Positions 165-8,971 of a stretch of 64,000 bases of DNA are shown one piece after another. The stretch lies in NCBI GenBank assembly GCA_030654225.1, contig JAURXY010000003.1, positions 16,056 through 80,055 of the forward strand, in the 5' to 3' direction. The notes below the pieces were generated by a model that saw only the letters and a list, made by a program, of their open reading frames with translations, was not told the origin of the DNA and did no database searches. The position numbers and the translations under genes are program-made. Origin of the DNA: a bacterium. GTDB taxonomy: Bacteria; Patescibacteriota; Minisyncoccia; Moranbacterales; UBA2206. Each line of letters begins with the position of its first letter. The stretch's first letter is position 1.

Positions 165-605
165 ATGGAGAATTTAAAAATAAAATTCAAAATAGTCACT
201 CCTGAAAAAACTGTTTTCGAAGATGTTGTTGATCAGGCGACTTTGCCGACCACGGATGGGGAAATAACAATCCTGCCAAATCATCGTAGTTATATTTCCA
301 GTTTGAAAGCGGGAGAATTGATGCTTCGAAAAGGCGAGGAAGAAATTTTGCTTTCTATTTCTGGTGGATTTATTGAATTTCACGGCAATGAATTGATTAT
401 TTTGGCCGACACAGCTGAACGAGCGGAAGAAATTGATTTAGTTCGCGCCAAAGAAGGCCGAAAGAAAGCCGAAGAGCTGAAAAACCAAGTTGTTTCAATG
501 GATGAAAATGAATATGCTCGCGTAGCGGCCGCCATCCAAAAAGAATCCGCTCGAATTCGTGTGGCCAGAAAACATCACACAAGAAGAAGTATAAAAACAG
601 ACTAA
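165..605 (+). CDS. atpC: F0F1 ATP synthase epsilon subunit
   Basis: 146 aa. N-terminal beta-sandwich region (KIVTPEKTVFEDVVDQATLPTTDGEITILPNH) and C-terminal helical hairpin typical of AtpC. Directly follows the atpD 3' end. Confidence 0.85.
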   Translation: MENLKIKFKIVTPEKTVFEDVVDQATLPTTDGEITILPNHRSYISSLKAGELMLRKGEEEILLSISGGFIEFHGNELIILADTAERAEEIDLVRAKEGRKKAEELKNQVVSMDENEYARVAAAIQKESARIRVARKHHTRRSIKTD

Positions 606-616
606 TTTTTTATATT

Positions 617-1639
617 ATGAAAAGCAAAATAAATTTACTAATCGAACTTAACAAGAAACATTCCGAATTATTTTGCAGTCAAAAACTGGAGCGTGATTTA
701 TATAGAGCAAAACACCCAACCAATGTAGTGGCTTTTAAATGTATGGATGGACGCATCCATCTTCCGGTTATCACGCAAACTCCATTGGGAATCATCAGTC
801 CTTTTCGCAATATGGGTGGCAGATTTGATTTAGGTTGGCCACTTCTCAATGTTTCTTTTGATGAATCTGTAACTCAGGCGGTTAAAAAAGGATCGCGAAC
901 ATTAGTCCTGGTAACCTATCATTTTTCCAAAGGAGATGTTCACAGAGGCTGTGCCGGTTTCAATTATGATTGTGAAGAATCAAAGAGATCTACAGCAAAT
1001 TTCAGAGATCAGATAAGAAGAATTTATGGGGTGGAAAATCAAGTTGTCTTTCCGGTTTTGATTGGAATTGAAACTGACAAAGATGCTCTGATTTTGCATG
1101 GAGATAATGGAGAGGTTGTTGATGTAAGCACACTAAAAAAGTCAGACGAAGAAAGTTTGCTAACAATTATTCATAGGCTTTTTCCCAATATGCCGGAACG
1201 AATTGTTTTGGATTTCTTGCCAATTATTGCAGGAAATCTAAATCAAATCGGAGAAACAAAAAAACAAAAAATGGAAGCTCAGTTGGCTCATGGTGAATGG
1301 GTTTTGGCAGTGGGAAAAGGTTTTGATTGGCTTCACACTCCGAATATGGCGATGATTGTCGGGCCGTATGATCCTAATATTGGTGAGCCAATTAAGACCG
1401 CGGCGGGTATTATCAAATCCAATTGGGAATCAGGCAGGATTGAAAAAGGGATTGTTATTTTAGCCTCGGCTCTTTATAGTGATGCAGCTGATCGAGCAAG
1501 AACGCAAGAACGAGCGATTTTTATGAAAAAGCTATCGGAAGATATTATGGCTAAAAATTATCCGGAAATGATGAAATATATGAATTCAATAGCGGTGGTG
1601 GTAAACTCAAATACTATGAAAATGGAAGTGATTGAATAA
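617..1639 (+). CDS. Beta-class carbonic anhydrase-like protein (divergent, extended)
   Basis: 340 aa. CMDGR (beta-CA CxDxR zinc motif) then FRNMGGRF (like beta-CA FvxRNxGN), then about 58 residues later HRGC (HxxC zinc motif). Family assignment rests on motifs only. Confidence 0.4.
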   Translation: MKSKINLLIELNKKHSELFCSQKLERDLYRAKHPTNVVAFKCMDGRIHLPVITQTPLGIISPFRNMGGRFDLGWPLLNVSFDESVTQAVKKGSRTLVLVTYHFSKGDVHRGCAGFNYDCEESKRSTANFRDQIRRIYGVENQVVFPVLIGIETDKDALILHGDNGEVVDVSTLKKSDEESLLTIIHRLFPNMPERIVLDFLPIIAGNLNQIGETKKQKMEAQLAHGEWVLAVGKGFDWLHTPNMAMIVGPYDPNIGEPIKTAAGIIKSNWESGRIEKGIVILASALYSDAADRARTQERAIFMKKLSEDIMAKNYPEMMKYMNSIAVVVNSNTMKMEVIE

Positions 1640-1654: not shown

Positions 1655-1685
1655 TTGACAATTTTTTTTAGGGGAGTAATATAAT
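1655..1685 (+). promoter_or_regulatory. Sigma70-like promoter candidate (TTGACA-N17-19-TATAAT) upstream of the NuoB-like operon
   Basis: TTGACA at 1655-1660 followed by aatata/tataat at 1678-1685, in the 120-bp gap before the 1763 CDS. Confidence 0.3.
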
Positions 1686-1762: not shown

Positions 1763-2305
1763 ATGAAAGCTTTCAGATTAATAAATATTTTATTGTTTAG
1801 CAAGAAAGTTACTGAGAAAAAGAAAGCTTTTTTTTCGTCCGATAAAGACAAATCTTTTGAAAAAGCAGGGCGGGAGATAAAAGAAATTATTGGGAATCTG
1901 TATGGCGGAAGATCGTTGCGCATTAGAGCGGTGGATGCTGGTTCGACTAATGCCGAAGAAATAGAGCTGACTGCTCTTGGCAACGCCTATTATGATATTG
2001 ACCGATTTGGTTTGAGCTTTGTGGCTTCTCCGCGTCACGCCGATATGTTATTTGTGAGTGGTCCAGTGACGAGAAATCTTGAGAAAGCTTTGCTTACTAC
2101 CTATGAGGCTATGCCAAAGCCTTGCATCGTGGTGGCAATTGGAGACGGTGCTTGTACGGGTGGAATTTGGAAAGATTCTTATGCAGTGGTGGGTCCAGTA
2201 GAAAATGTGATCCCAGTACATTTGAAAATTCCTGGGGATCCGCCTTCGCCAACCGAGATGCTTGTTGGAATACTTCATGCGTTAAAGAATGGAAGCGTCA
2301 ACTAA
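1763..2305 (+). CDS. NuoB/hydrogenase-small-subunit-like protein lacking the N2 Fe-S ligand cysteines
   Basis: DIDRFGL..SPRHADMLFVSGPVTRNLEKAL...PKPCIVVAIGDGACTGGIW...VIPVHLKIPGDPPSP aligns to the NuoB/Ech small-subunit core. The CCxxE motif is replaced by AGSTNAEE and PGCPP by PGDPP. The true start may lie downstream of 1763. Confidence 0.7.
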   Translation: MKAFRLINILLFSKKVTEKKKAFFSSDKDKSFEKAGREIKEIIGNLYGGRSLRIRAVDAGSTNAEEIELTALGNAYYDIDRFGLSFVASPRHADMLFVSGPVTRNLEKALLTTYEAMPKPCIVVAIGDGACTGGIWKDSYAVVGPVENVIPVHLKIPGDPPSPTEMLVGILHALKNGSVN

Positions 2306-4301
2306 ATATATGCTAGAAAATTATATCATTTTTGGAATAGAAATTTATTTTGCCGGTTTGATTTTATCGGCGTTGTTAGCTTTTTTGAATAAATCTTTTA
2401 AGAGCGGAACAAAATTATTTATTTTTTCCAATGGAATTGGTTTTTTGTCAATAATTTTTTATTTTTTATTTTTTTCAAAAGAAACTCTTGTTCTCGCTCA
2501 ATTTAATTGGTTTTTTGAATTTACTCCAAGATTGAATTTTCTTTCCGCGCTTTTCTTTGCAATTATAAGTGGCGTTTCTTGCTTGGTGGGAATTTATAGT
2601 TTGCGATATTTGGAACTTTATAAAAATGATTATAGTCCTCATACAGTTCAATGTTTAATGTCCGGATTTGTTTTAGGAATGCAAGGTGTTCTTTTGTCGA
2701 ATAATGCCTTTGTTTTCTTGCTTTTTTGGGAAGTGATGTCGATCGCTTCATTTTTCTTGGTTTTTTCCGATAAAAAAGAGGAATCAATCAAAGCGGCCTT
2801 CACATACTTCATCATGACTCATTTAGGCGCTTCAGCAATTTTGGGTGGCTTTTTGATTCTAGGTCAAGGCACACTTATTTTTAATTTGGATAATATAACC
2901 ATTGCTTCTCAAAACTTATCGCCGAATTTTTCAAATTTGGCTTTCTTGCTTTTTGTTTTTGGCTTTGGTTCTAAAGCAGGATTGGTGCCTTTCCATGTGT
3001 GGCTTCCCGAAGCTCATCCTCAAGCTCCGAGTAATATTTCAGCGATGATGAGCGGACTGATGCTGAAAGTATCGGTCTATGGATTTATTATGATTATTTT
3101 GAATTTTGTCAATATTCCTGGTTGGGCGGGACTTATTGTTTTATTCCTAGGAATTTTGTCGGGGATGGTAGGGGTTTTATATGCAGTAGTAGAAAGAGAT
3201 ATGAAAAAAGCATTTGCTTATAGCAGTATAGAAAATATGGGCATTATTTTTACAATGCTCGGGCTAGCGATTTATTTATTATCTTTTGGTAACTATCAAA
3301 TAGTGGCTTATTCCATAATCGCTTTTGCTATTTTCCACGCGCTGAATCATGCCCTGTTTAAATCAGCGCTTTTTCTTTCCAGTGGAATAATAATAAACCG
3401 AGTGCATACTAAAAGTTTGGAAATGATGGGTGGGATTGCCAAGTTGATGCCGATTTTCAGCTTGGCTTTTCTTCTCGCTATTTTGGGATCTTTACCGTTG
3501 CCATTATTTGGAACTTTTTATGGAGAATGGGGTCTTATTCGAAACAGCTTAACCTTAATGGGGGAATCAAGTGTTAGCTCGAATACGGTTATTCTATTAC
3601 TAGCTGTTATTTCTTTTGTGGCGATGATCAGCGGGCTGGCGATTTTTGCGATGGTAAAAATTTTTGGTATTTCAATGTTAGGATTACCACATAACCCTCA
3701 TATGGAAAAAAGAAATGAGCGTGCCGATTTTCTTTTGATTGTGCCGGTGCTTTTTTTGGCCGGTGGAGTGATTGTTTTTGGTTTTTTGGCAAAATTTATT
3801 ATTTTTCATATAACAAATTATTTGCAAACAGTTAATTTTTATTCTGCTCATACAATAACTTCTCCGATGGATATTTCTTCATTCTGGATAAGTGGCGCGA
3901 TTATTTTTACTGGCTTGGTAGTATATATTTTCCAAAAAATATTATTAAAAAATAAAAAGGAGCGAAGTTATCACACTTGGGACTGTGGTCAACCAATTGA
4001 TGCAACAATGCAATATAGCGCCACCGCTTTTTCTGCTCCGATAAGATTTTTCTTTCTTTCCTTTATCGGTAGAAAAAAATCAATGCAGTCAACTCCTATA
4101 GTAGAAACAAATCCTTGGATCAGAAAATATAACTTTGAGCTGTCTATTCGTTCGACTTGGAATGATGCGCTGTATGCTCCGATTGCGAAAAGTTTGCATT
4201 TTATGGCTGAGAAAATACGCTTTATTCAAAATGGTCGCATCCAATATTATATTTTGTTTCTCCTCGGCGCTCTAATTATCACTTTAATTTTTGCTTTATG
4301 A
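2289..4301 (+). CDS. NuoL/MrpA/HyfB-like antiporter-type membrane subunit
   Basis: 670 aa polytopic protein with the family signature HVWLPEAHPQAPSNISAMMSGLMLKVSVYG. Overlaps the previous and next genes (operon). Confidence 0.75.
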   Translation: MEASTKYMLENYIIFGIEIYFAGLILSALLAFLNKSFKSGTKLFIFSNGIGFLSIIFYFLFFSKETLVLAQFNWFFEFTPRLNFLSALFFAIISGVSCLVGIYSLRYLELYKNDYSPHTVQCLMSGFVLGMQGVLLSNNAFVFLLFWEVMSIASFFLVFSDKKEESIKAAFTYFIMTHLGASAILGGFLILGQGTLIFNLDNITIASQNLSPNFSNLAFLLFVFGFGSKAGLVPFHVWLPEAHPQAPSNISAMMSGLMLKVSVYGFIMIILNFVNIPGWAGLIVLFLGILSGMVGVLYAVVERDMKKAFAYSSIENMGIIFTMLGLAIYLLSFGNYQIVAYSIIAFAIFHALNHALFKSALFLSSGIIINRVHTKSLEMMGGIAKLMPIFSLAFLLAILGSLPLPLFGTFYGEWGLIRNSLTLMGESSVSSNTVILLLAVISFVAMISGLAIFAMVKIFGISMLGLPHNPHMEKRNERADFLLIVPVLFLAGGVIVFGFLAKFIIFHITNYLQTVNFYSAHTITSPMDISSFWISGAIIFTGLVVYIFQKILLKNKKERSYHTWDCGQPIDATMQYSATAFSAPIRFFFLSFIGRKKSMQSTPIVETNPWIRKYNFELSIRSTWNDALYAPIAKSLHFMAEKIRFIQNGRIQYYILFLLGALIITLIFAL

Positions 4302-5893
4302 GCCAAATAATAATCATATTAATCCAAGTCATTTTTATTTTAGCCGTAGCTCCGCTTGCTTCAGGCTTGGTGCGTTTTTTTAAGGCGCGTCTTCAAGGTA
4401 GAGATGGAGCTTCGCCTTTTTTACCGTACGTTACTTTGGCTACATTATTGCGCAAAGAAATGGTTATATCAGAGACTACCTCTTGGATTTTTAGGATAGT
4501 GCCTTTTGTAGTTTTTGGAAGCGTTCTTTTTCTGTCCGCTTTTATGCCACTTATTTTCAGAGGAATGAGCGTGCCTTTTTTTAGTGATTTTTTGGTTATT
4601 GCTGGAGTATTGGTGATCGGTTCAATTTTTTTAGTGTTGGGAGGCTTGGATGCCGGTAGTGCTTTTGGAGGAATGGGATCTAGTCGGGAAATGACAATTT
4701 CTGCTCTCATCGAACCGGTTATGATTTTAGTTTTTTCCGCCGTTAGTTTTTCAACTAAGGAATTTACAATTGATGGAATGTTGTCTAGCCAGACATTATT
4801 CCAACCATATTTAATATTGACCATAGTAGCTTTGATATTAGTGGCATTAGCAGAAAATGCTCGTTATCCGGTGGATAATCCCGCTACTCATCTTGAGCTC
4901 ACGATGGTGCATGAAGCGATGCTTTTGGAATATTCCGGAAAATATTTAGCCATACTCGAATATGCTTCTGCTATAAAGTTAGTTATTTTTTCTTTACTTA
5001 TCTCAAATTTTGTTTTTCCTTCCTTGCTTGTGGGAGCAGTTTCATGGAGCATAGGTTCTCTGATGACTATTTTATTTTTTAGTCTAATAAAAATCATCAT
5101 AGCTATGTTAGCACTGGCCTTTATTGAATCCGTTCTGGTTAAGATGCGATTTTACAGAATGTCAGAATATTTTTCCGTAGCTTTTGTGGTGGCTTTTCTT
5201 GGCATGGGCGCAACACTTATGTCCAAATTTACTAATATGGTTATAGAATATCATACTATGTTTTCGCTTTTTACGGTGGTGTGTATCGTGATTCTTTTTG
5301 GTCGAGTGCGTTTGAAAGCGATTTTGCGTTACTATGCCTTTTCTTCTTTAGCCATTGCCGGAATTGCTTGGGGACTAATTCCTTTAGTTTCCGAAACGGA
5401 AAAAATTCATCTATGGTTATTTGCAATTTTCACAATTATTACCAAGGCAATAGCAGTGCCGTATGTCATTAACCGTTCCAGCCATGTCAAAAAAAGTTTG
5501 ACAAACCTACCTTCATTTTTGCGTCCGGGAAAGAGCTATTTTTTAGCAGTTATTCTTTTGGTTATAACCTATTTTACTTTGGAAAATGTTTCTATTATAG
5601 GGCTGGCTAAATGGAGTTCATTGCTCTATTGCGCCGTCACTTTGATTGTTTTAGGCATAGCAATGATGATTATCAAGCGAAATATTTTTTCTCAGATTAT
5701 CGGTCTTCTGGTGATTGAAAATGGTATTGCAGTTTTTGTTTTGGCTACTGTTGGATCTCTTCCAATTACGATTGAATTTGGCATTTTTGCAGTAACTGTT
5801 GCTACGGCATATATTTTGGCTATATTAAGTGGGCAAATTAGTGATTTATATGGAAGCACCGACACGGAAGATTTACGAGAACTAGCTGAATAA
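4298..5893 (+). CDS. NuoH/HycD-like membrane subunit with C-terminal extension (possible NuoK/HyfE-like fusion)
   Basis: N-terminus RFFKARLQGRDGASPFLPYVTLATLLRKE and RYPVDNPATHLELTMVHEAMLLEYSGKYLAILEYA match the NuoH/HycD signature (E.EL..G...EYsG). It is about 200 aa longer than NuoH. ATGA overlap with the upstream gene. Confidence 0.6.
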   Translation: MSQIIIILIQVIFILAVAPLASGLVRFFKARLQGRDGASPFLPYVTLATLLRKEMVISETTSWIFRIVPFVVFGSVLFLSAFMPLIFRGMSVPFFSDFLVIAGVLVIGSIFLVLGGLDAGSAFGGMGSSREMTISALIEPVMILVFSAVSFSTKEFTIDGMLSSQTLFQPYLILTIVALILVALAENARYPVDNPATHLELTMVHEAMLLEYSGKYLAILEYASAIKLVIFSLLISNFVFPSLLVGAVSWSIGSLMTILFFSLIKIIIAMLALAFIESVLVKMRFYRMSEYFSVAFVVAFLGMGATLMSKFTNMVIEYHTMFSLFTVVCIVILFGRVRLKAILRYYAFSSLAIAGIAWGLIPLVSETEKIHLWLFAIFTIITKAIAVPYVINRSSHVKKSLTNLPSFLRPGKSYFLAVILLVITYFTLENVSIIGLAKWSSLLYCAVTLIVLGIAMMIIKRNIFSQIIGLLVIENGIAVFVLATVGSLPITIEFGIFAVTVATAYILAILSGQISDLYGSTDTEDLRELAE

Positions 5894-5917: not shown

Positions 5918-7399
5918 ATGAATCCAAATATTCTAATCATTCCATTTATACTAGCTTTCATTTTTTCGGTTGTTGCAAAAAATGAAAAAGTAGCGCGACT
6001 AAGCAATCTAGTATTTTCTTTGATTGGAGGATCGGCTTTGATTTTTTATGCAACGTCTTTTCTTATTTTCTCTCAAAATAAATTAATAAGTTCATGGTGG
6101 AGAATGGATGATTTTTCTGCTTTAATGGTAATTCTTATTGCAATTATTTATATCTTTTGCGTGATAATTAGTTTTCGCTATATCGGACATGAGTATGAGG
6201 AAAAAATTATCACCCTGTATCAGTATAAGTTATATTTTGCATTGTTTCAGCTATTTGCATTGTGTATGATTCTGGTTATTTTCACTAATAATTCGTTATT
6301 GCTTTGGTTGGCGCTGGAAGGAACAACTCTTTTCTCCACTTTTTTAGTTGGATTGTATCGTAAAAAAACCAGCATAGAAGCCGCTTGGAAATATATGATT
6401 CTTTGCTCGACTGGCATTAGTTTGGGTTTGGTGGGGATTTTGCTTTTGAGCTATGGCGCTCATGTCGGCGGAGTGGCGGAAGGTAATATTTTTTTATTAA
6501 ATCATCTGGCTGATAATGCCCAACTTATTCCAAAAAATATCATAAAATTAGCTTTCATATTTTTATTCATTGGCTTTGGAACAAAAGTTGGTTTGGCGCC
6601 AATGCATACTTGGCTTCCGGATGCTCACAGCAAGGCGCCATCTCCTATCTCGGCTATTTTTTCAGCAGTTCTTTTGAATGTTGCGCTCTATGCCATCCTA
6701 CGTTTTAAATTTATTACTGATAGTGCTTTTATGGATGCATCTTGGACGAATAATTTATTTTTGATTTTCGGTTTTTGCTCGGTGATTTTAGCGGCATTTA
6801 TGATGCTTATTCAAACAAACTATAAAAGGATGCTGGCCTATTCCAGTATCGAGCATATGGGAATAATTCTTTTTTCTCTGGGGCTTTCTCCGATTGGTGC
6901 GGTGGCTGGCGTGATGCATATGATTGGACACACCTTTGCCAAGTCGGCTTTGTTTTTTGGAGCAGGTGAAATTTTGATTCGATGGAAAACGACAAAAATT
7001 TCCAAGATAAAAAATATGTTCAAATATGCAAGATATACTAGCATTCTTTTTATCCTAGGAATCGTGGCAATTATTGCTATTCCGCCTTCAGCTTTGTTTG
7101 TGAGTGAATATGGTATGTTTGCTCAAGCAATTATTTTCCATCCGGTGGCGTCCCTCTTTTTGTTTATTGCTTTGAGTATTATTGCCTATGCTATGCTGTC
7201 TATTTCGATCAGAATGATTTTTGACACTGAAGAAGAAGTTTCAGAAAATAAGCTGGGAAAAGAAAAATGGAACATCACGCATACGATAATTGTTTTGGAA
7301 ATTTGCGTGTTGATATTTTTAGCCTTTTGGTTTACAACTGGAAACGCAATGGAGATAACTAATAATATAGTAAAAGATTTTTTATTTATTAAACAGTAG
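5918..7399 (+). CDS. NuoM/NuoN/MrpD-like antiporter-type membrane subunit
   Basis: 493 aa membrane protein carrying HTWLPDAHSKAPSPISAIFSAVLLNVALYAILRF, the Mrp/NuoLMN family motif. Confidence 0.75.
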   Translation: MNPNILIIPFILAFIFSVVAKNEKVARLSNLVFSLIGGSALIFYATSFLIFSQNKLISSWWRMDDFSALMVILIAIIYIFCVIISFRYIGHEYEEKIITLYQYKLYFALFQLFALCMILVIFTNNSLLLWLALEGTTLFSTFLVGLYRKKTSIEAAWKYMILCSTGISLGLVGILLLSYGAHVGGVAEGNIFLLNHLADNAQLIPKNIIKLAFIFLFIGFGTKVGLAPMHTWLPDAHSKAPSPISAIFSAVLLNVALYAILRFKFITDSAFMDASWTNNLFLIFGFCSVILAAFMMLIQTNYKRMLAYSSIEHMGIILFSLGLSPIGAVAGVMHMIGHTFAKSALFFGAGEILIRWKTTKISKIKNMFKYARYTSILFILGIVAIIAIPPSALFVSEYGMFAQAIIFHPVASLFLFIALSIIAYAMLSISIRMIFDTEEEVSENKLGKEKWNITHTIIVLEICVLIFLAFWFTTGNAMEITNNIVKDFLFIKQ

Positions 7400-7408
7400 T
7401 TTTATTTT

Positions 7409-8971
7409 ATGAATATTCAAGAAATTATTAAAACTTTTGCAGGAAAAATAACAGATGTAGTCGAAAAGAATGATTTGATATGCGCCAAAGTATCTCGCGA
7501 TGATTTGGCTGATATTTCGACTAAATTATTTCAAGAGTATAAGCTACCGCTATCTCTTCTTTTCGGTACAGATAATCGCAAGAAAAATGGAAATTTTGAA
7601 GTGCATGTTATTTTTAGTTTAGATGACGAACATAAATGGTTGAAAATTTCCGCTGAAGTGCCTGAAAGTGATCTGCAATATCCTTCGTTAACAAAAACGA
7701 TTATGGTGGCGCATTGGTATGAAAGGTATTTACGAGACATGTTTGGCGTTGTTCCTGTTGGACATCCGGACTTGCGAAGATTAGTGCATCATGAAAATAT
7801 TCCAGAAAATACGCATCCTTTACGCAAAGATTTTCAGTGGAATACAAAATTATCCAAAGATAATGTGTCATATCCGATGCATCATGTGACTGGTGAAGGA
7901 ATATTTGAAATTCCGGTTGGACCAATTCATGCGGGTATCATTGAGCCGGGACATTTTCGTTTTAATGTGGCCGGAGAAAGAATTCTAACCCTAGAAGGAA
8001 AATTGTTTTTTACTCATAAAGGAGTGGAGAAATTATTAGAAGGAAAAAATATTGATGAAGCCTTGCCTTTCATTGAAAGAATCTCGGGAGATATGAGTGC
8101 TTCACATTCTTTGGCATATGTGCAGGCGGTGGAAAAAATCAGCGGTTGTGTTGTGTCAAAAAGAGTGCAAATGCTTCGAGCGATTATCACTGAATGTGAG
8201 AGAATCACGATGCATATTCATGATTTGGCCAATATTGGAGGAATGGGAACGGGCTTTAGTTTTATCGCTGCCAATGGATTTCGCATTAAAGAAAGAATGA
8301 TGCGCTTGTCAGCGGATATTTGTGGTAATCGCTTTTGGCGAGGAATGATTGTTCCGGGAGGAATAAAAAGTGATATTAAAAAAGAAAATTTAGAAAAAAT
8401 ATTAGAAATATCACAAGAAGCTTGGAACGAAATAAACAAAATTACTACCGTTGCTTTGGATGACGAAGGCTTTTTGGATCGCTTGCAATATACCGGCGAA
8501 CTTCCCAAAGAAGCAGCCGAGGCTTTTGGCGCAGTCGGTTTTCCGGCACGTGCTTCTGAAATTAATCGAGATGTGCGTCGAGATCATCCATATGCTTCAT
8601 ATGCAGACTTTCCAATCAAGGTTATTACTAAGAAAAGTACTGATGTTTTTGCCCGCTATCGAATAAGGATAAAAGAAATTGAGCAATCAATAATTTTGCT
8701 CAAAACTTTGGTGGAAAAAATAGAGGAAGGAAGTGTTTTTGAAAAATGCGAAGTGAAAGACGGTTTTGCGATTGGCGCTGTTGAATCTTGGAGAGGTGAA
8801 ATTGTTTGCGCTTTGCAAATTAAAAATGGCGTGATTGAAAGATGCTATCCGCGCGACCCGTCTTTTTGTAATTGGGCGCTTTTCGGTATTATGGGTCCTG
8901 GTAATATCGTTCCTGATTTTCCACTCATCAATAAGAGTTTGAATCTGTCGTATTCGGGGAATGATTTGTAA
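7409..8971 (+). CDS. NuoC-NuoD fusion-like / [NiFe]-hydrogenase large-subunit-like protein lacking Ni-Fe ligand cysteines
   Basis: N-terminal NuoC-like region (WYERYLRDMFGV...GHPDLRRLV) and NuoD/HycE-like region (GPIHAGIIEPGHFRF...). The N-terminal RxCGxC and C-terminal DPCxxC Ni-Fe motifs are absent (C-terminus reads RDPSFCNWALF). Confidence 0.75.
   Translation: MNIQEIIKTFAGKITDVVEKNDLICAKVSRDDLADISTKLFQEYKLPLSLLFGTDNRKKNGNFEVHVIFSLDDEHKWLKISAEVPESDLQYPSLTKTIMVAHWYERYLRDMFGVVPVGHPDLRRLVHHENIPENTHPLRKDFQWNTKLSKDNVSYPMHHVTGEGIFEIPVGPIHAGIIEPGHFRFNVAGERILTLEGKLFFTHKGVEKLLEGKNIDEALPFIERISGDMSASHSLAYVQAVEKISGCVVSKRVQMLRAIITECERITMHIHDLANIGGMGTGFSFIAANGFRIKERMMRLSADICGNRFWRGMIVPGGIKSDIKKENLEKILEISQEAWNEINKITTVALDDEGFLDRLQYTGELPKEAAEAFGAVGFPARASEINRDVRRDHPYASYADFPIKVITKKSTDVFARYRIRIKEIEQSIILLKTLVEKIEEGSVFEKCEVKDGFAIGAVESWRGEIVCALQIKNGVIERCYPRDPSFCNWALFGIMGPGNIVPDFPLINKSLNLSYSGNDL

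Follow-up and report, generated by a model that had tools for sequence, protein, structure and literature searches.

The carboxysomal carbonic anhydrase (CA) CsoSCA (CsoS3) has relatives encoded outside carboxysome loci, and these were named CsoSCA2 in 2022 in 'Atypical carboxysome loci: JEEPs or junk?' (Front Microbiol; USF Genomics Class/Scott lab; PMC9164163). The compact variant of CsoSCA2 was placed outside the carboxysomal clade and was described as having an N-terminus of ~40 residues predicted as two helices, an active and a defunct domain, and the full set of active-site residues; it was listed in nine Candidatus Moranbacteria genomes (PMC9164163). In a later structural paper, CsoSCA2 sequences served purely as an outgroup (PMC12646314). 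Expression of the Accumulibacter CsoSCA homologue CAP2UW1_1967 is high and dynamic (PMC4796919), so at least one family member is in use. Here, we analyse a 340-residue protein encoded at positions 617-1639 of a 64,000-nucleotide stretch of a Moranbacterales genome (contig JAURXY010000003.1), hereafter the window. It is a compact CsoSCA2, related to the carboxysome CA but not carboxysomal, and does not constitute a new enzyme class. Genes of this family are found unusually often beside movers of H+, Na+ and bicarbonate, namely the F-ATPase operon, the energy-converting hydrogenase-related (Ehr) complex, four-antiporter DAB clusters, SulP and Na+/H+ exchangers.

Profile searches assigned the protein to the CsoSCA family. 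The Pfam domain CsoSCA_cat (PF20686) matches residues 80-162 with 31.6 bits against a gathering cutoff of 21.5, whereas the match to the canonical β-CA family Pro_CA (PF00484) is sub-threshold (E = 0.095, 13.4 bits against a cutoff of 25.7). The similarity to known proteins, low according to the original prediction, is therefore low towards canonical β-CAs but not towards CsoSCA_cat. Membership of the canonical β-CAs was rejected, with PF00484 and PF20393 both non-significant. TIGR02701, the NCBIfam equivalog for the carboxysomal enzyme, scored 38.3 bits, far below its cutoff of 241, and covered residues 81-162 only; this places the protein as a relative, and not an orthologue, of the carboxysomal enzyme. 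No match to PF10070 (DabA) or the Cup family was obtained at E ≤ 0.1 in Pfam and NCBIfam scans, and no DNA-binding or signalling domain was found with Pfam. Alignment to 2fgy by phmmer gave E = 2e-5, and all PDB sequence matches below 1e-3 are CsoSCA chains (2fgy, 9g4t, 9skx, 9skr). Homologues number 2,292 at E ≤ 1e-3 and, among the matches listed, are 43-100% identical across the full length. The closest genome loci belong to Candidatus Moraniibacteriota, with up to 88% identity, which marks the window as patescibacterial, and an identical protein is present in NCBI as 'MAG: carboxysome shell carbonic anhydrase [bacterium]'. The proposal of a new β-CA subclass thus falls, as the subclass is structurally that of CsoSCA, its clade has a name and the protein itself was already annotated.

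The predicted structure leads to the same family. An AlphaFold2 model built on a 67-sequence alignment had a mean pLDDT (predicted local distance difference test) of 92.5 and a predicted template modelling (TM) score, pTM, of 0.91. Foldseek comparison of this model, the check that the original prediction had proposed for its β-CA fold, bore that fold out: the best matches were CsoSCA of H. neapolitanus and Cyanobium (E 3e-17 to 2e-16, query TM-score (TMq) 0.68-0.75), with 2fgy, 9g4t and 8thm at the top (E ~3e-17, TMq 0.73-0.75), followed by the two-domain β-CA of Porphyridium (3e-6) and then by ordinary β-CAs (~1e-3, TM ~0.25-0.33). In the model, helices at residues 2-21 and 23-32 precede the first strand at residue 36. 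A catalytic α/β domain (~35-215) is followed by a second α/β domain (~220-340) that lacks the Cys/His/Cys triad, and the alignment to full CsoSCA extends over 362-387 columns. The second domain accounts for the ~120 residues by which the protein exceeds canonical β-CAs: the excess in length is real, but in place of a docking module it is the zinc-less duplicate domain typical of the CsoSCA subclass.

All three motifs on which the original prediction was founded are present in the open reading frame (ORF), CMDGR at residues 42-46, FRNMGGRF at 63-70 and HRGC at 109-112. Across the 67-sequence alignment C42, D44, R46, R64, G68, F70, Y101, H102 and C112 are invariant, a degree of conservation that puts the motifs far beyond chance. 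However, HRGC is not the zinc motif it was thought to be. H109 is less than 90% conserved and is replaced by Q or L in some homologues, while the conserved histidine is H102, within 'TYHFS'; the site is therefore H-x9-C, as in CsoSCA, and not HxxC. The Cys-to-His spacing, put at about 58 residues, is correspondingly 60 from C42 to H102, or 67 if counted to H109. In the phmmer alignment to 2fgy (numbered after subtraction of a 28-residue tag offset), C42, D44, R46, H102 and C112 correspond to Cys173, D175, R177, His242 and Cys253 of H. neapolitanus CsoSCA. Cys173, His242 and Cys253 are reported to be the zinc ligands of that enzyme, and D175 and R177 its catalytic dyad (Sawaya et al. 2006). The evidence supports C42, H102 and C112 as the predicted zinc ligands of the window protein, with D44/R46 as its dyad, and the model, read together with these alignments, supports a β-CA fold with a predicted Cys/His/Cys zinc site. 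A further set of invariant columns (H225 to N243) lies in the second domain and aligns weakly with 'GHAERYISVGDGFD' of the CsoSCA C-terminal domain in the phmmer alignment to 2fgy.

With carboxysomal CsoSCA (2FGY, 8THM, 9G4T) the protein shares the two-domain fold, one active site per chain and the pattern Cys-x-Asp-x-Arg...His-x(9-10)-Cys. It differs in being only ~17-19% identical, in lacking the ~144-residue N-terminal domain and the Rubisco-binding peptide, in its shorter loops and in being encoded outside a cso operon. Canonical β-CAs (PF00484; E. coli Can, pea CA) have the same α/β core, Cys/His/Cys site and Asp-Arg dyad, but are homodimers of single domains where the window protein is a single chain with a duplicated domain, and space the His and Cys ligands by 3 residues (HxxC) instead of 10. 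From the compact CsoSCA2 variant, by contrast, the protein shows no difference: both have ~340-370 residues, two N-terminal helices and an active and a defunct domain, are encoded outside cso loci and occur in Moranbacteria. The Nitrosomonas oligotropha member used in PMC9164163 also belongs to the same family (45% identity). The protein is thus an ordinary member of a named, annotated family, and only its gene neighbourhoods go beyond the 2022 description; it is in their comparison that the value of the locus lies.

A scan of one genome per species detected a relative in at least 569 genomes. Of these, 80 loci were retained, making 81 with the window; their neighbouring ORFs were clustered and cluster representatives were annotated with Pfam. 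In bacteria of the candidate phyla radiation (CPR), the atp operon is directly followed by CsoSCA2 on the same strand at 14 of the 81 loci (the window, L001-L003, L006, L013, L014, L016, L017, L020, L021, L041, L043 and L051), which span 45-88% protein identity. CsoSCA2 is followed by Ehr at five Moraniibacteriota-type loci, and Ehr is convergent with it or nearby in Sulfuricella (L072), Thiobacillus (L028) and a deltaproteobacterial metagenome-assembled genome (MAG; L057), bringing the total to 8/81. The order PF00361 - DabA (~1,100 aa) - three PF00361 genes - CsoSCA2 was found at about 20 loci from Nitrosomonas, Thiodiazotropha and Rhodocyclaceae. SulP immediately precedes CsoSCA2, and a sigma54 regulator/kinase follows it, in Nitrospira; SulP is also found downstream in Nitrosomonas. 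CPA1 Na+/H+ exchangers adjoin CsoSCA2 at three loci (L063, L071, L051). Overall, the flanks of ~47 of the 81 loci contain one or more of these modules for moving ions or inorganic carbon. The 2022 description (PMC9164163) contains zero mentions of ATP synthase operon, Ehr, extended DAB cluster, SulP or CPA1 neighbours, and literature searches for a link between CA and Ehr, CA and Moranbacteria, or DabA and Nitrosomonas yielded nothing relevant. The neighbourhood pattern therefore appears to be unreported in the searchable literature. It offers a testable lead as to why a divergent CA is widespread in non-autotrophs and what redox-dead CPR Ehr complexes do.

In the window, the start of the CA gene lies 11 nt from the stop of atpC, and csoSCA2 is probably co-transcribed with the ATP synthase operon. 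A spacer of 123 nt separates it from the Ehr cassette. This spacer holds a promoter-like element, although the total count of such sites in the consensus scan is no higher than expected from shuffled sequence; no terminator was found between the CA gene and the cassette. Downstream of Ehr lie the housekeeping genes LeuRS, NTP-transferase, PGM, GlmS, RlmN-like and DXS, and no cso or RuBisCO genes flank the CA gene in a Pfam scan of ORFs up to ~24 kb.

The Ehr cassette itself appears to have lost its redox chemistry. Aligned to HycE (7z0s_E), the large subunit has RISGDMSASHS where HycE has RVCGICGFAHS, and LSYSG where HycE has PCYSC, so that all four NiFe cysteines are lost. The small subunit, aligned to MbhJ/HycG, reads GSTNAEE for GSCNGCD/GGCNGCE and PGDPP for PGCPP, which leaves it with at most one of the four [4Fe-4S] cysteines. 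Related metagenomic loci carry the same replacements and, judged by its residues, the cassette has no recognisable redox cofactor site. In such loci it very often comes straight after the F1Fo atp operon. A CPR Ehr clade without metal-binding cysteines had already been reported in 2020 (PMC7304191), and the cassette of the window agrees with it in lacking the NiFe-ligand cysteines. In the papers searched we found neither a loss of FeS cysteines from the small subunit nor the cassette's frequent location behind the atp genes with an intervening CA or CA-like gene. The Ehr that adjoins csoSCA2 in Sulfuricella retains its FeS cysteines, which indicates that the FeS loss is specific to the CPR form.

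Our preferred reading, which we consider likely, is that CsoSCA2 is a soluble cytoplasmic zinc β-CA with predicted activity that serves membrane ion transport. C42, H102 and C112 would hold one zinc ion, and the D44-R46 dyad would position the zinc-bound water or hydroxide that attacks CO2; the C-terminal half would be a diverged duplicate domain whose metal site was lost. No signal peptide or membrane segment is present, and the protein is accordingly taken to work in the cytoplasm. There it would interconvert CO2 + H2O and HCO3- + H+, keeping the three species at equilibrium, such that protons and bicarbonate could be supplied or removed at the pace of the membrane ion translocators. The translocators served would be F-ATPase and Ehr at this locus; in other lineages their place would be taken by DAB-type clusters, SulP and Na+/H+ exchangers. 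Animal cells offer a parallel, in that their cytosolic CA is physiologically paired with proton ATPases and with SLC26/NHE transporters. Several points weigh against this reading. The enzymatic activity is predicted from conserved residues only, ~40% of the CsoSCA2 loci have no transport module nearby, and the neighbourhood counts are inflated by common ancestry within Nitrosomonas and Moraniibacteriota. Furthermore, a free cytoplasmic CA should run down the bicarbonate pool accumulated by a DAB-type CO2 pump beside it, which hints at a regulated or complex-bound activity and not at a simple soluble enzyme.

A rival explanation makes CsoSCA2 a peripheral subunit docking on the redox-dead Ehr or, more generally, on PF00361 subunits, where it would carry out vectorial, gradient-coupled hydration or dehydration of CO2 beside the ATP synthase, by analogy with DabA-DabB or with CupA/CupB on cyanobacterial NDH-1. 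In those systems, too, a CA-related protein is encoded beside PF00361 antiporter-like subunits, and in Nitrosomonas csoSCA2 clusters with DabA itself. The appeal of the idea stems from the CPR Ehr retaining no redox chemistry: with its NiFe cysteines absent and at least three of four FeS cysteines gone, some non-redox partner reaction would be needed. Ehr comes immediately after CsoSCA2 in the window, L001, L002, L011, L012, L101 and L112, and is convergent with or near it in Sulfuricella, Thiobacillus and the deltaproteobacterial MAG; CsoSCA2 also closes the DabA clusters of the ~20 proteobacterial loci, a second, weakly β-CA-like small family (see below) fills the slot between atpC and Ehr in Uhrbacteria-type loci, and CsoSCA2 was speculated to form 'other types of enzyme complexes' (PMC9164163). 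However, cyanobacterial NDH-1 is powered by redox chemistry of which the CPR Ehr would be incapable, and the window protein lacks a PF10070 match, its association with membrane subunits being hypothetical. The reverse comparison speaks against a dedicated subunit as well. Among 37 metagenomic loci with close relatives of the window NuoB-like protein, CsoSCA2 is directly upstream of Ehr in only five of these CPR-type Ehr loci (L081, L084, L091, L101, L112), and in four others (L083, L090, L103, L110) Ehr directly follows atpC. At L003, whose CA is 82% identical to that of the window, the synteny atpC-CA-LeuRS is kept while the five-gene Ehr cassette is absent. Moreover, CsoSCA2 proteins adjacent to Ehr have the same length as those from Ehr-free loci and no additional segment by which to dock, and the promoter-like site stands between the CA gene and Ehr. 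Taken together, the reverse comparison, the synteny of L003 and the equal lengths do not support CsoSCA2 as an obligate, dedicated Ehr subunit; in CPR bacteria it is tied more tightly to the ATP synthase operon than to Ehr. As far as this evidence goes, with Ehr adjacent at 8/81 CsoSCA2 loci and CsoSCA2 at 5/37 Ehr loci, the original suggestion of a CA-fold protein repurposed as a subunit of the neighbouring membrane module is not upheld, and we think docking of this kind unlikely. We give a slightly poorer chance to its most explicit form, in which the CPR Ehr would be the non-redox membrane engine of a CA-coupled ion machine, CsoSCA2 (or, in Uhrbacteria-type loci, the small β-CA-like protein) would dock on it, and CO2 hydration or dehydration would be coupled to a translocation of H+ or Na+ either supplying the ATP synthase or supplied by it. 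Were it true, a DAB/Cup-like principle would be operating on a hydrogenase-derived scaffold, and a first function would be assigned to Ehr complexes.

Another explanation is that CsoSCA2 has retained the fold while serving chiefly to sense CO2/bicarbonate or to regulate ATP synthase or neighbouring transporters, and not as a bulk catalyst. The Nitrospira genes do lie between SulP and pairs of sigma54 response regulators and histidine kinases, the second-domain motif (H225, E227, G233, G235, F236, D237, H240, N243) is conserved seemingly beyond the needs of a purely structural 'defunct' domain, and the carboxysomal CsoSCA of Cyanobium is reported to be allosterically regulated by ribulose 1,5-bisphosphate (RuBP; PMC11086599). 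Yet none of the catalytic residues varies, the Asp-Arg dyad included, which is the signature of an active enzyme, and Pfam shows no DNA-binding or signalling domain; we think a role of this kind quite improbable. Hardly credible is the notion that a carboxysome operon decayed and left this gene behind, or that the ORF was called in error and its motifs arose by chance. The words 'carboxysome shell' in the annotation favour it, but the other observations point the other way: the gene is flanked by atpC and Ehr, then by LeuRS, sugar-nucleotide and DXS genes, with no cso or RuBisCO genes; the 2,292 homologues are conserved at full length; the TIGR02701 score is far below its cutoff; and the compact variant lies outside the carboxysomal clade. 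With the invariant residues and the structural matches to CsoSCA added, this explanation is effectively refuted.

The small family mentioned above was found at seven metagenomic Ehr loci, where a protein of ~210 residues with an invariant C39-x-D41...H114-x-P116-C117 pattern is encoded between atpC and Ehr. It comprises 19 clusters, mostly from Uhrbacteria. No significant Pfam domain was found in the family, one member giving a sub-threshold match to PF00484 (E = 0.007), and the best PDB profile match was a weak one to a β-CA at the HxxC motif (E = 0.033). An AlphaFold2 model (pLDDT 84) matched β-CAs in most of its top 50 Foldseek hits, again weakly (E 4.5e-3 and above, TM 0.3-0.5). The family lacks the Arg of the Asp-Arg dyad, and we therefore term it β-CA-like and not CA. 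Homology to CsoSCA2 was considered and rejected, as profile-profile comparison was non-significant (hhalign probability 0.3%). Independent look-ups again placed the family between atpC and Ehr, with one divergent member located elsewhere. Its genes are also found directly 3' of CsoSCA2 in L013, L043 and L051; a plain replacement of CsoSCA2 was rejected on this account, and the family accompanies CsoSCA2 and is not merely its substitute. Coordinates of these genes and of the window features are collected in Table 1.

Table 1. Positions of the csoSCA2 gene, its motifs and neighbouring genes in the window, and of small-family genes at other loci.
Feature	Location	Strand	Basis
atpC (F1 epsilon subunit), last gene of the F1Fo ATP synthase operon	window 165-605	+	PF02823/PF00401, TIGR01216
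csoSCA2-type β-carbonic anhydrase gene, ATG start, 340 aa	window 617-1639	+	ORF, PF20686, phmmer, AlphaFold2, Foldseek
Codons C42-M-D44-G-R46 (predicted first zinc ligand and Asp/Arg catalytic dyad)	window 740-754	+	invariant in 67 homologues; aligned to CsoSCA C173/D175/R177
Codons H102 to C112 (HFSKGDVHRGC; predicted second and third zinc ligands, H-x9-C)	window 920-952	+	H102 and C112 invariant; aligned to 2fgy H242, C253
Codons of second-domain motif H225-x-E227-W...G233-x-G235-F-D237-x-x-H240-x-x-N243	window 1289-1345	+	invariant columns
Promoter-like element TTGACA...TAATAT/TATAAT, CA-Ehr spacer (putative)	window 1655-1685	+	consensus scan
NuoB/HycG-like small subunit, Ehr cassette	window 1763-2305	+	PF01058; alignment to MbhJ/HycG
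HyfB-like Ehr membrane subunit	window 2289-4301	+	PF00361; NCBIfam hydrogenase-4 models below cutoffs
HyfC(NuoH)+HyfE(NuoK) fusion, 531 aa	window 4298-5893	+	PF00146+PF00420; NCBIfam hydrogenase-4 models below cutoffs
HyfF-like Ehr membrane subunit	window 5918-7399	+	PF00361; NCBIfam hydrogenase-4 models below cutoffs
NuoC/NuoD-HycE-like large subunit, four NiFe cysteines replaced	window 7409-8971	+	aligned to E. coli HycE 7z0s_E, E = 7e-75
Small-family genes	L095 5244-5879; L099 5238-5894; L088 1243-1884; L113 5237-5866; L120 8001-8627		
Small-family genes directly downstream of CsoSCA2	L013 8987-9520; L043 7769-8353; L051 10139-10726		

The DabA-containing arrangement is exemplified by Nitrosomonas oligotropha Nm75 (L036, 502-11035), in which six genes follow the order PF00361 - DabA - PF00361 with a NuoL N-terminus - PF00361 - PF00361 - CsoSCA2. 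The same six-gene cluster is found in L031, L032, L037, L038, L040, L042, L048, L049, L055, L062, L073 and L077. DabA in the Nitrosomonas cluster is a separate gene of 1,103 aa. The cluster represents a DAB-type locus for pumping inorganic carbon, to which four antiporter-like subunits and a second carbonic anhydrase belong, and no description of it was found in the searchable literature. In the Nitrospira MAGs (L024-L027, L035) the full, conserved order is SulP anion transporter - CsoSCA2 - sigma54-type response regulator - histidine kinase - response regulator, which suggests a regulated bicarbonate-handling locus. Fusions of CsoSCA2 with SulP or with other proteins, seemingly encoded by ORFs of 622-1005 aa in L034, L052 and L069, were dismissed as artefacts of upstream ORF extension in high-GC DNA, with low-complexity sequence.

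Additional copies of the gene were observed at two loci. L014 (8823-11035) has two tandem CsoSCA2 genes after atpC, and L004 (10001-12219) has a far more divergent second paralogue directly downstream of the first, scoring 137 bits to the family profile. In the Thiobacillus MAGs L019 and L028, CsoSCA2 directly follows an ORF of ~270-290 aa and one of ~780 aa (von Willebrand-like protein cluster); from the appearance of its sequences, this pair looks like the Rubisco activase CbbQ/CbbO. An Ehr cluster is convergent with CsoSCA2 in L028.

Four loci (L007, L012, L014, L043) carry Bdellovibrionales, Micavibrio or Gammaproteobacteria labels, yet their CsoSCA2 is of Moraniibacteriota type, 47-63% identical to that of the window, and lies in CPR-type atp or Ehr synteny, suggesting that they are mis-binned or mislabelled CPR contigs. 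Finally, a perfect 13-bp inverted repeat, CTGAAGTTAAAAA-ATAAA-TTTTTAACTTCAG, is present at positions 105-135 of the window, ~30 nt upstream of atpC and inside the atp operon, where it might serve in attenuation or mark a site of RNA processing.

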